A stretch of DNA of 64,000 nucleotides from Escherichia coli (GCF_050320075.1 NZ_CP190018.1); one strand, 5' to 3'; shown: positions 41,150 through 59,278, counted from the first letter of the stretch. Numbers and translations: made by a program. Notes: generated by a model from the sequence alone, not told the origin.

Positions 41150-41342
41150 AATGGCTCACTCAAGCTTGCTCACGATTGATTCCAGTAACAAACCGTATTG
41201 TGTAATTATTTCTATAGCAGGTCGCTATATAGGCTTGTATACATCGAATAATTTGAAAATCAAAGAGATAGGTAGATTTTCACTCGAAAGTAGTATTACG
41301 TGTAAGTGAGGAGTAATTATTGTTCGGTATCAAAGGGAGACA

Positions 41343-41366
41343 AAAAAAGCGCCCGCAGGCGCTTTT
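41343..41366 (-). terminator. Rho-independent terminator downstream of serS
   Basis: Hairpin AGCGCC-CGCA-GGCGCT flanked by A/T runs, just 3' of the serS stop. Confidence 0.65.
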
Positions 41367-41387
41367 TAGATTCAGAAAAATTGGGTA

Positions 41388-55739: not shown

Positions 55740-55961
<222 letters not shown>

Positions 55962-56142: not shown

Positions 56143-56171
56143 TTGACCGTTTTACTCCAACTCCCTATAGT
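56143..56171 (+). promoter_or_regulatory. Candidate sigma70 promoter for serW
   Basis: -35 TTGACC at 56143-56148, 17-bp spacer, -10 TATAGT at 56166-56171, AT-rich upstream tract and GC-rich discriminator, about 44 bp before the tRNA 5' end. Confidence 0.55.
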
Positions 56172-56214: not shown

Positions 56215-56302
56215 GGTGAGGTGTCCGAGTGGCTGAAGGAGCACGCCTGGAAAGTGTGTATACGGCAACGTATCGGGGGTTCGAATCCCCCCCTCACCGC
56301 CA
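56215..56302 (+). tRNA. serW: tRNA-Ser (anticodon GGA)
   Basis: 88-nt sequence GGTGAGGTGTCCGAGTGG...GGTTCGAATCCCCCCCTCACCGCCA with long variable arm; anticodon GGA at 56249-56251; encoded CCA end. Confidence 0.95.
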
Positions 56303-56313
56303 TATTTAAAGAA

Positions 56314-56347
56314 AAGCTCGTACGAAAGTGCGAGCTTTTTTTTCGCA
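56314..56347 (+). terminator. Rho-independent terminator after serW (copy 1 of 3)
   Basis: Hairpin GCTCGTAC-GAAA-GTGCGAGC followed by a run of eight or more T. Confidence 0.7.
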
Positions 56348-56493
56348 TATTGCACTCCAGGGGGGATGAGAAGCCCCGACCGGGGTTCGACAACTGGCGC
56401 AGCCAGTTGGACAGACCACGAACACAGTGAGTGGGCTGCCCGCAGGGCGAGCGAAGCGAGTCAATCCCCCCCTCACCGCCATATTCAAAGAAG

Positions 56494-56527
56494 AGCTCGT
56501 ACGAAAGTGCGAGCTTTTTTTTCGCAT
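56494..56527 (+). terminator. Terminator-like hairpin, repeat copy 2
   Basis: Same hairpin plus T-run inside the second repeat unit. Confidence 0.6.
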
Positions 56528-56672
56528 ATTGCACTCCAGGGGGGATGAGAAGCCCCGACCGGGGTTCGACAACTGGCGCAGCCAGTTGGACAGACCACGA
56601 ACACAGTGAGTGGGCTGCCCGCAGGGCGAGCGAAGCGAGTCAATCCCCCCTCACCGCCATATTTAAAGAAAA

Positions 56673-56700
56673 GCTCGTACGAAAGTACGAGTTTTTTTTC
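56673..56700 (+). terminator. Terminator-like hairpin, repeat copy 3
   Basis: CTCGTAC-GAAA-GTACGAG followed by TTTTTTTT. Confidence 0.6.
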
Positions 56701-56939
56701 GCATTTTATCTGCCTGTACGGCAGTGAACGGTATAAAAATCGAGTTTTTCTTTCGGTTGGCTTTCTAAGCTGCCTGTACGGCAGTGAACTCAAATACTAC
56801 ACGTTTAGTCCGTTATTAATAAAGCAAAACCATCTCATTTTCCTGCTGCCACCCTTTTTTATTCTTACCTTCCAGCACCATTAATTATCAACAACTTACC
56901 TTCACCTCCAAAAATAGGGTTTTCACCGCCCCAGCCTAC

Positions 56940-56978
56940 AAACAAAAAGTCCGTAACCTCTTTCGAGATTACGGACTT
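56940..56978 (-). terminator. Rho-independent terminator downstream of clpA
   Basis: Minus-strand hairpin AGTCCGTAA...TTACGGACT followed by TTTTTGTTTG. Confidence 0.65.
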
Positions 56979-57001
56979 CACCAACCTACCTGACAATCAG
57001 A

Positions 57002-59278
57002 TTAATGCGCTGCTTCCGCCTTGTGCTTTTGTGCACTCTGGAATCCATAAGTCAGCTCATTTTTCTCTTTATCCAGCGCAACCGTCACCTGACCGCCGTC
57101 CACCAGCGAACCAAACAACAGTTCGTTGGCGAGCGGTTTTTTCAGGTTGTCCTGGATGACACGCGCCATCGGACGTGCGCCCATTGCCCGGTCGTAACCT
57201 TTCTCGGCCAGCCAGTTACGCGCTTCCTGGCTCACTTCCAGAGAAACACCTTTCTGATCCAACTGAACCTGCAACTCGACGATGAATTTATCCACTACCT
57301 GATGGATCACGTCGGTGGAGAGATGATCGAACCAGATAATGTTGTCGAGACGGTTACGAAACTCCGGCGTAAAGATCTTCTTGATCTCTTCCATCGCATC
57401 GGTGCTGTTGTCCTGGTGGATAAGACCAATCGATTTGCGCTCAGTTTCTCGTACCCCAGCGTTGGTGGTCATCACCAATACCACGTTACGGAAGTCCGCT
57501 TTGCGTCCGTTGTTATCGGTCAGCGTACCGTTGTCCATCACCTGCAACAGAATATTGAACACGTCCGGGTGCGCTTTCTCGATTTCGTCCAGCAGCAGCA
57601 CCGCATGTGGATGCTTGATGACCGCATCAGTCAGCAAACCGCCCTGATCAAAACCAACGTATCCCGGAGGCGCACCAATCAGACGGCTGACGGTATGGCG
57701 TTCCATATACTCGGACATATCAAAGCGCAGAAGCTCAATGCCCAAAGCTTTCGAAAGCTGTACCGTCACCTCTGTTTTCCCGACCCCGGTAGGGCCGGCA
57801 AACAGGAACGAACCGACCGGTTTATGTTCGTGACCTAAACCTGCACGCGCCATCTTAATGGCTTCAGTCAGCGCCTCAATGGCTTTATCCTGACCGAAGA
57901 CCAGCATTTTCAGGCGATCGCCGAGGTTTTTCAGGGTATCGCGGTCACTCTGAGAAACACTCTTCTCTGGAATGCGTGCAATACGGGCCACCACGGACTC
58001 AATATCCGCCACATTAACGGTTTTCTTGCGTTTGCTTACCGGCATCAGGCGTGCGCGAGCGCCCGCTTCGTCGATGACGTCAATGGCTTTATCCGGCAGA
58101 TGACGATCGTTAATGTATTTCACCGCCAGCTCTACCGCTGCACGCACCGCTTTTGCGGTATAACGCACATCGTGGTGCGCTTCATACTTCGGTTTCAGGC
58201 CGTTGATGATTTGAACAGTTTCTTCGATCGACGGTTCAGTAATATCAATTTTCTGGAAGCGACGCGCCAAAGCACGGTCTTTCTCGAAAATGTTGCTGAA
58301 CTCCTGATAGGTTGTCGAACCAATTACGCGAATTTTACCGCTGGAGAGCAACGGTTTGATCAGGTTAGCCGCATCGACCTGACCACCAGACGCTGCACCC
58401 GCACCGATAATGGTGTGGATCTCATCAATAAACAGGATGCTGTTAGTGTCCTGCTCCAGCTGCTTGAGCAACGCTTTAAAACGTTTTTCAAAGTCGCCGC
58501 GATATTTTGTGCCCGCTAACAGAGAACCGATATCGAGAGAGTAAATCGTACAGTCAGCCATCACTTCCGGCACATCACCCTGAACAATTCGCCAGGCAAG
58601 ACCTTCCGCAATCGCGGTTTTACCGACACCAGATTCCCCCACCAGCAGCGGGTTGTTTTTACGGCGACGGCAGAGAACCTGAATAGCACGCTCCAGCTCC
58701 TTCTCACGACCAATCAGTGGGTCGATTCCGCCCACGCGCGCAAGCTGATTCAGGTTCGTCGTGAAATTCTCCATACGTTCCTCCCCACCAGCTTGTTCTT
58801 CGCTGTTTGGCTGGCTGCCAGGATCAGAAGACTGTGTCGGCTCGTCTTTACGCGTGCCATGAGAGATAAAGTTCACCACATCGAGACGGCTGACTTCATG
58901 TTTACGCAACAGATATGCCGCCTGCGACTCCTGTTCGCTAAAGATAGCGACCAGAACGTTTGCACCGGTAACCTCATTGCGACCGGAGGACTGGACATGG
59001 AAGACCGCACGTTGCAGCACACGCTGAAAACTCAGCGTCGGCTGTGTGTCGCGCTCCTCTTCACTGGCAGGCAGAACGGGTGTGGTTTGTTCAATAAAGG
59101 CTTCCAGTTCCTGACGGAGCGCAACCAAATCCACAGAACACGCTTCCAGCGCCTCCCGGGCAGATGGGTTACTGAGCAGCGCCAGTAACAAGTGCTCGAC
59201 GGTCATAAACTCATGACGGTGCTCGCGCGCTCTGGCGAAAGCCATATTTAAACTGAGTTCCAGTTCTTGATTGAGCAT
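57002..59278 (-). CDS. clpA: ATP-dependent Clp protease ATP-binding subunit ClpA
   Basis: Conserved start [19 protein letters not shown] at ATG 59276-59278 (track ORF starts five codons upstream); two AAA+ modules with Walker A GESGVGKT and GPTGVGKT. Confidence 0.97.

Follow-up and report, generated by a model that had tools for sequence, protein, structure and literature searches.

Tandem repeats downstream of Escherichia coli serW as a probable tRNA-Ser(GGA)-linked RtT array

The RtT RNA family (Rfam RF00391) was first defined on 178-bp repeats found in the tyrT-tyrV operon. The K-12 version of this operon holds four RtT copies that score 133–137 bits, recur with a 178-bp period, and each close with the last 19 nt of tRNA-Tyr, and the K-12 annotation gives a 171-nt rttR of tyrT that starts 7 nt past the tRNA and ends at the repeat CCA. 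The 171-nt rtT RNA of tyrT was described as a discrete product and linked to the response to amino-acid limitation (Bosl and Kersten 1991, cited in PMC4986893 and PMC3318445), and the only known published lead on a role of RtT is that the tyrT copy modulates the stringent response. In Actinobacillus pleuropneumoniae, Northern blots revealed RtT homologues beside the tRNA genes for Asn and Lys (PMC4986893).

The window analyzed here is a 64,000-nucleotide stretch of an E. coli genome (GCF_050320075.1, NZ_CP190018.1). ARAGORN identified one tRNA in it, the tRNA-Ser(GGA) gene serW, which lies between infA, ending near 55961, and the convergent clpA on the − strand. A first-pass annotation had described tandem repeats of about 178 bp 3′ of serW, and these were found to be real. 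Tandem Repeats Finder gave a period of 179 with 2.4 copies and 97% matches at 56284–56704, and a repeat search resolved two full 179-nt copies (56284–56462 and 56463–56641) that are 99% identical, together with a 55-nt block of tRNA tail and terminator that occurs three times at spacings of 179 and 178 nt. Each unit is composed of an intrinsic terminator followed by a module of approximately 135 nt, which ends in the 3′ 19 nt of serW including the CCA. Sequence reading located the terminator hairpin, the GC-rich body, the palindrome, and the T-arm-like GGGGTTCGA exactly where they had been annotated, and the claim that each unit closes with the last 19 nt of serW, with the second tail one C short, was likewise borne out. 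All three terminator hairpins read AAAGAAAAGCTCGTAC-GAAA-GTGCGAGCTTTTTTTT, and the tRNA-derived part of each unit amounts to 28 nt, namely GGGGTTCGA (the 5′ half of the T-arm) and AATCCCCCCCTCACCGCCA (the 3′ 19 nt). The features are as follows.

56143–56171, + strand: promoter-like site of serW (TTGACC, 17 nt, TATAGT; promoter scan)
56215–56302, + strand: serW, tRNA-Ser(GGA) (ARAGORN; Rfam RF00005, 53.8 bits)
56284–56302, + strand: last 19 nt of serW, tail copy 0
56308–56343, + strand: terminator 1, directly 3′ of the tRNA CCA, with A-tract, hairpin, and T8 and a bidirectional look (inverted repeat, fold)
56345–56481, + strand: RtT unit 1 (RF00391, 45.1 bits)
56360–56367, + strand: P1 5′ strand GGGGGGAT of unit 1, following its leader (folds and covariation)
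56370–56388, + strand: P2 hairpin of unit 1, GAAGCCCC-GACC-GGGGTTC
56382–56390, + strand: T-arm-like GGGGTTCGA of unit 1
56391–56409, + strand: H3 of unit 1, the palindrome CAACTGGC (56391–56398), GCA, GCCAGTTG (56402–56409)
56412–56438, + strand: H4 of unit 1
56439–56447, + strand: CCC-GCA-GGG of unit 1
56463–56481, + strand: tail AATCCCCCCCTCACCGCCA of unit 1, identical to 56284–56302 and ending CTCACCGCCA at 56481
56464–56471, + strand: P1 3′ strand ATCCCCCC of unit 1
56487–56522, + strand: terminator 2, intrinsic (sequence reading, repeat search)
56525–56659, + strand: RtT unit 2, with six C in its tail rather than seven (RF00391, 48.6 bits)
56642–56659, + strand: tail of unit 2, one C fewer than the 3′ 19 nt of serW
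56665–56704, + strand: terminator 3 plus CGCAT, a partial third unit (hairpin 56665–56699)
56702–56789, − strand: orphan type I-F CRISPR array of two repeats and one spacer (RF01317, 50.1 and 29.7 bits)
56730–56761, − strand: its 32-nt spacer
56946–56979, − strand: terminator of the neighboring clpA
57002–57004, − strand: stop codon of clpA

Both bodies matched RF00391 over its full length (model 1–130) at 45.1 and 48.6 bits. The gathering score of this family is 45 bits, and both units passed at the curated thresholds in the local scan as well as in the scan of the whole window. Such scores (45–49 bits) are marginal against the 133–137 bits of the tyrT copies; the Ser subtype lies at a distance from the Tyr-dominated Rfam model. 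In the same window, a strong match to the enterobacterial sRNA STnc130 (RF02084, 140 bits) was located at 41240–41374 on the + strand, unrelated to the RtT array. Further marks of the family are present at serW: the units lie on the strand of a tRNA gene, directly 3′ of it and within its transcription unit; they end in approximately 19 nt of the host tRNA 3′ end including CCA; their period of 179/178 bp over 2.4 copies corresponds to the tandem period of about 178 bp; and their structure is closed by pairing of GG..GGAU with AUCC.. of the tail, a helix (P1) that co-varies with the tRNA type. A sequence 99.9% identical over 1051 bp (NZ_CP042899.1) carries two "RtT sRNA" annotations at serW in RefSeq/PGAP, and RtT entries at serW likewise stand in the RefSeq records of E. 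coli B, of an O145 strain, and of strain 7/2. The serW repeats hence very probably constitute a two-unit RtT array of a tRNA-Ser(GGA)-linked subtype, whose module folds into a closed multi-hairpin RNA. This array is a known feature, as the family is catalogued and the locus is already annotated in RefSeq genomes; it accordingly carries little weight for the window and should not be treated as a new mobile-element scar. A similar fragment exists on a 105-kb E. coli plasmid, p2017-19-1CC_1 (NZ_AP027855.1, 29448–29590), where an IS1-flanked piece of chromosome, annotated as "tRNA-OTHER", matches the 3′ end of serW together with the terminator and the first part of an RtT body (query 287–389, 94%); this match is uninformative about the array.

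A pattern scan of one genome per species, covering at least 120 loci, returned at least 195 elements, of which at least 87 follow tRNA-Ser(GGA), at least 80 follow tRNA-Tyr(GUA), and at least one follows tRNA-Lys; among the matches listed, one degenerate copy follows tRNA-Pro and the remainder have no tRNA in the flank retrieved. For most of the at least 195 elements listed, the last 19 nt are those of the upstream tRNA. The 5′ part of the body consists of a strand ending in GGAU, a GA, the hairpin GAA-N-(T-stem complement)/(T-stem 5′ strand)-UUC, and another GA; the 3′ part consists of two to four hairpins that vary, among them the conserved CCC-GNA-GGG, and an A; and the body ends with AUCC-(T-stem 3′ strand), which runs into the acceptor 3′ strand and CCA. 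The T-arm of the host tRNA is thus kept as two halves, which the hairpin insert separates within the loop and which each base-pair with a complement lying upstream. The P1 strands change with the host tRNA as listed below.

Ser type: GGGGGGAT/ATCCCCCC
Enterobacterial Tyr: GGGGAAGGAT/ATCCTTCCCC
Lys: CTGGAT/ATCCAG
Two Marinobacterium Tyr types: AGGTGGAT/ATCCACCT and GGGTGGAT/ATCCACCC

Between the two Marinobacterium types, one pair that lies outside the T-stem has undergone a compensatory change from A-U to G-C. Across all contexts examined, which are Ser, two Ser variants, enterobacterial Tyr, the two Marinobacterium Tyr types, and Lys, four segments of the module track the T-stem of the host tRNA. 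This re-matching of the tail and helices to whichever tRNA hosts them provides a testable handle on RtT function, and a statement of it was not found in our literature search. RtT-like elements after other tRNAs were also noticed in an Oceanospirillaceae MAG, a Marinobacterium MAG, and Neiella marina. The element of tRNA-Pro(UGG) has a 5′ strand, GCAGAGGGAT, that perfectly complements the 3′ region of tRNA-Pro while its own tail is degenerate, and in the element of the Marinobacterium MAG, P2 still pairs (CATC/GATG) though it no longer equals the tRNA T-stem. Some Ser-type bodies, those of a Citrobacter MAG and of Enterobacter sp. JUb54, contain an extra insertion of approximately 75 nt (GCACAAAAA..GCCCCGAAGGGGCGAGGCCCAGGGATGGGCCGAGTAAC) in the CCC-GNA-GGG hairpin; its near identity between genera suggests a small mobile repeat landing in this loop.

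The P1 and P2 helices were evaluated on a cross-type alignment of 22 sequences, in which 86% of the cells were paired and the covariation score was 0.305; slid controls gave at most 0.133, and none of 500 shuffles reached 0.305. For 27 distinct Ser-type sequences, the RNAalifold structure paired 97.8% of the cells, and compensatory changes were detected in 10 of the 36 pairs, mostly in H3 and H4, compared with 4.7 ± 1.2 in shuffles (0/500 reach ten) and at most 2 in slid controls. One Citrobacter has H4 swapped for a different perfect hairpin. A single unit of the window folded at −76.9 kcal/mol (z = −5.56). Since the closing helix co-varies with the tRNA and the hairpins show compensatory changes, selection acts on the structure of the RtT units, which in the simplest case is an RNA structure. 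A constraint on the DNA itself could conceivably underlie the hairpin covariation instead. G-U pairs, one of which is invariant, outnumber A-C cells in the Ser-type alignment, an excess that mildly favours an RNA read from the + strand. The same four segments also admit an alternative pairing, composed of a T-arm-like 5′ hairpin and a reconstituted split T-arm, whose covariation equals that of P1+P2, as expected because a T-arm and its reverse complement are almost the same. Only the P1 extension pairs and the invariant GGAU/AUCC and GAA/UUC lean towards P1+P2.

These data also bear on the suggestion of the first-pass annotation that the repeats are a degenerate pseudo-tRNA array, that is, decaying tandem duplicates of a tRNA-Ser gene. 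Every unit does carry 28 nt of tRNA, comprising a T-arm split in the loop, the acceptor 3′ strand, and CCA, and units that keep the T-arm unsplit, described below, point to exchange with real T-arms; an ancient origin by partial duplication of a tRNA is plausible. However, the units lack a D arm, an anticodon arm, and the 5′ strand of the acceptor stem. Outside the tRNA pieces, Tyr-type and Ser-type bodies are homologous and selected for their structure; the body is conserved instead of decaying. The proposed pseudogene-mode run of ARAGORN yielded no tRNA or cloverleaf in the units at default, -ps, or -ps80, and the calls that appear only at -ps70 (56335–56418 and 56514–56597) are spurious, with ends that do not fall at the tails. 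Intermediates between a full tRNA gene and an RtT body are absent across the at least 120 loci listed, which speaks against decay as the present state of the units. We consider the pseudo-tRNA array highly unlikely as an explanation of the serW units.

The other suggestion was an integrase footprint, in which an element inserted at the 3′ end of serW, its tail was duplicated as attL/attR, and the remnant was later tandemly duplicated. Integration at serW and serX does occur: the islands OI-43 and OI-48, with their P4-family integrase, insert there, and the 14-bp direct repeats on either side of them are the last 14 bp of the tRNA; this core, CCCCCTCACCGCCA, is present inside every unit tail (PMC3064760). 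In addition, homology breaks right after serW in O157 genomes, and the K-12 serW resembles an empty integration site. The core is nevertheless found in each tail because the tail copies the tRNA end, and the multiplied potential attB cores are a consequence of the units, not their origin. The block actually shared between the repeats is approximately 60 bp of tail and terminator, not the 14-bp core, and the serW alleles vary by whole units. The match to a prophage end that had been sought did not emerge among 50,697 phage records searched with the unit (BLASTN, distant mode); neither an integrase remnant nor any foreign or mobile-element sequence was found, and the ORFs across the unit are unconserved. 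The body is instead homologous to those after tyrT, serX, and Ser, Tyr, and Lys tRNAs of many genera, with helices matched to the respective tRNA, and a decaying scar would not keep such helices together with compensatory changes. An att scar therefore has a very slim chance of being the correct description. Of the interpretation attached to the first-pass annotation, the strain variability, the absence of two units from K-12, and the tRNA-derived pieces stood, whereas the integrase scar and the pseudo-tRNA array did not.

The terminators raise the question of whether the repeats are primarily an insulator, with three bidirectional terminators placed between the convergent serW and clpA and the bodies as passengers. 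All three are strong, with a hairpin, a T-run, and an A-tract upstream, and 32 of 42 Ser-type tails have a terminator after them, its hairpin kept by compensatory changes. On the other hand, no terminator comes after any of 57 enterobacterial Tyr-type tails, whose arrays keep the body all the same, and the selection signal sits in the body helices. The serW allele of zero units already has one terminator, and clpA has its own. An array maintained chiefly for its terminators is consequently judged very improbable.

A small-protein gene was considered as well. An ATG within GGATGAGAAG starts a 60-aa ORF at 56366–56548 (+) that would encode a basic, Tpr-like peptide beginning MRSPDRGST, and tpr of the tyrT repeats uses the same conserved ATG and begins MRSFDQGST. 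This N-terminal similarity follows from the conserved RNA motifs. The ORF extends past tail and terminator into the following unit; its stop is unconserved, and its ATG is absent in the alleles of E. coli B and O145. With neither start nor stop conserved, the ORF was rejected as a gene, and the probability of a protein-coding function is close to negligible.

The comparison with K-12 and other E. coli that had been proposed revealed alleles of 0, 1, 2, or 3 units, and hence no universal arrangement. In K-12, the block of tail, terminator, and CGCAT exists exactly once, directly 3′ of serW, and is followed by a CRISPR remnant. The K-12 gap between serW and clpA had been put at about 350 bp shorter, equal to two units, and this was accurate: measured to the clpA stop, it is 343 bp in K-12 and 699 bp in the window, a difference of 356 bp. 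The alleles retrieved hold these numbers of units.

0 units: K-12
1 unit: O145 RM8995, JNE25-005, 0H26
2 units: the window, CFSAN061763, WCHEC96200, E. coli B
3 units: strain 7/2

At least one serW unit is present in 742 of 5426 complete E. coli genomes (~14%), counted as those covering at least 80% of the serW query, of which zero-unit genomes reach only 78–79%; a Ser-type body somewhere in the genome is present in 3776/5426. The serW array is therefore dispensable, since K-12 and approximately 86% of E. coli genomes do without it. In E. coli B and O145 the conserved GGAUGAGAA motif is altered, which may represent decay at the serW locus, and in the alleles of E. coli B, O145, and 0H26 the GGATGAGAA motif is altered, GGAT being replaced by GGGT or GGT. 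Because the array is polymorphic from zero to three units, with none in K-12 and units present in E. coli B, the function of the RtT RNA can be approached through a ready-made contrast between common laboratory strains with and without the array.

The fetched serW alleles differ by whole units, and the junction past the last terminator is constant. A junction of approximately 60 bp, composed of tail, terminator, and CGCAT, is identical at each unit boundary and directly 3′ of the tRNA; exchange between such junctions would therefore add or remove whole units and could restore the K-12 state exactly. Unequal homologous recombination or replication slippage between these junctions would account for gain and loss, unequal recombination being the most likely route of copy-number change, and the K-12 serW state would resemble a clean deletion of two units. 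Units were found with either of two downstream flank haplotypes and with different CRISPR spacers, which indicates that the serW-clpA region recombines. As to the origin of the array, Ser-type units were located at a serX-like locus (ghrA/ycdX nearby) in approximately 30 or more loci among the matches listed, and at a serW-like locus (infA/aat/clpA nearby) in six Citrobacter genomes among the matches listed, plus the window. The units of the window and the Citrobacter serW units have small diagnostic characters in common, and in a neighbor-joining tree based on about 118 nt, all E. coli serW units group with Citrobacter serW while the E. coli serX units group with E. albertii serX. This grouping is only suggestive; it favours an old serW lineage that would have been lost from most E. 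coli over a recent copy from serX. "Insert-less" RtT units of approximately 106 bp were also observed, as the first serX unit of E. coli SCPM-O-B-8794 and in Marinobacterium alkalitolerans, in which the 5′ module is fused directly to an unsplit T-arm and tRNA tail (...GGGGTTCGAATCC...CCA); they look like products of unequal exchange between a real tRNA T-arm and an RtT T-arm half.

The orphan CRISPR array beyond the last terminator belongs to the clpA-infA locus, where such an array was named CRISPR4.1-2 (PMC3903273). Its spacer is unlike that of K-12 and matches type I-F csy3 of other E. coli at 94–97% identity; either this spacer or its csy3 counterpart occurs in 652 of 5426 genomes. This fits a putative self-targeting "anti-cas" spacer in strains without I-F cas genes. 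The CRISPR4 arrays next to the fetched serW alleles contained 1–3 spacers.

The promoter scan detected only the promoter-like site of serW as able to drive the array; the repeats have no internal promoter-like site, and none lies in the 43 nt between the serW CCA and the start of unit 1 on the + strand. The units would thus be made only when transcription that starts at the serW promoter reads through the terminators, and probably in small amounts, because the sole promoter-like site is that of serW and terminators precede the units; judged from this arrangement, expression of the serW units may be very low. By analogy with the tyrT copy, the tRNA-like 3′ end would provide each module with a tRNA-type 3′ maturation site and release discrete RNAs ending in CCA. 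A literature search for expression of the serW or serX RtT units returned nothing specific.

With respect to a role, the 5′ 17–18 nt of the RtT module are an almost exact antisense of the cognate T-arm, and the sense T-arm is split by a hairpin insert of approximately 75 nt, leaving the acceptor 3′ strand and CCA hanging free. The four segments can form two mutually exclusive pairings, P1+P2, in which both T-arm halves are sequestered, and a T′-hairpin with a T-arm that carries the T-loop. It is conceivable, though on balance we think it rather unlikely, that the modules are tRNA-specific mimics or antisense decoys and not passive by-products. If they were, the RNA could switch between a look-alike of the tRNA 3′ domain and a closed form, and could titrate factors that read the T-arm and CCA of one tRNA, such as 3′-processing enzymes, RelA, or the ribosome; at the DNA level, the tails could act as extra attB cores for serW/serX integrases.

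The serW array can finally be placed among the described systems. The attL/attR sequences of OI-43, OI-48, and SRL-PAI are, like the serW tails, direct repeats of the tRNA-Ser 3′ end at serW or serX. Those repeats flank islands that encode a P4-family integrase and carry, among other cargo, the ter and ure clusters (PMC3064760), whereas the sequence flanked at serW is a 118-nt conserved structured body free of mobile-element sequence. K-12 serX has a tRNA sequence identical to that of serW and is arranged as ghrA-serX-[four bodies, 181-bp period]-ycdU. Its units share the tRNA sequence, unit architecture, terminator, and tail with those of serW and are annotated "RtT sRNA" in PGAP, and the body is 92.6% identical to that of the window (about 90% with the leader included). 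The two differ in being paralogous tRNA loci, in period (181 against 179 bp), and in diagnostic positions, with GGCGACAGCC against GGCGCAGCC and CCGTGAACGCAGTGAGCGG against CCACGAACACAGTGAGTGG, where the second contrast is a compensatory change of a base pair. The rtT/RttR repeats of tyrT-tyrV, like the Ser-type units, are located directly 3′ of a tRNA on the same strand, the periods spanning 178–181 bp, and each is closed by the 3′ 19 nt of its host tRNA with the CCA. The conserved core GGAUGAGAA...GGUUCGA...CCCGNAGGG is common to both, and in both P1 pairs a 5′ segment with the 3′ strand of the T-stem. The tpr ORF of tyrT rtT has no conserved counterpart at serW, and Ser-type units begin with an intrinsic terminator while tyrT-type units do not. 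H3 and H4 of the serW units are longer and different in sequence from those of tyrT rtT, and their tail, like the two helices derived from the T-stem, is re-matched to tRNA-Ser.
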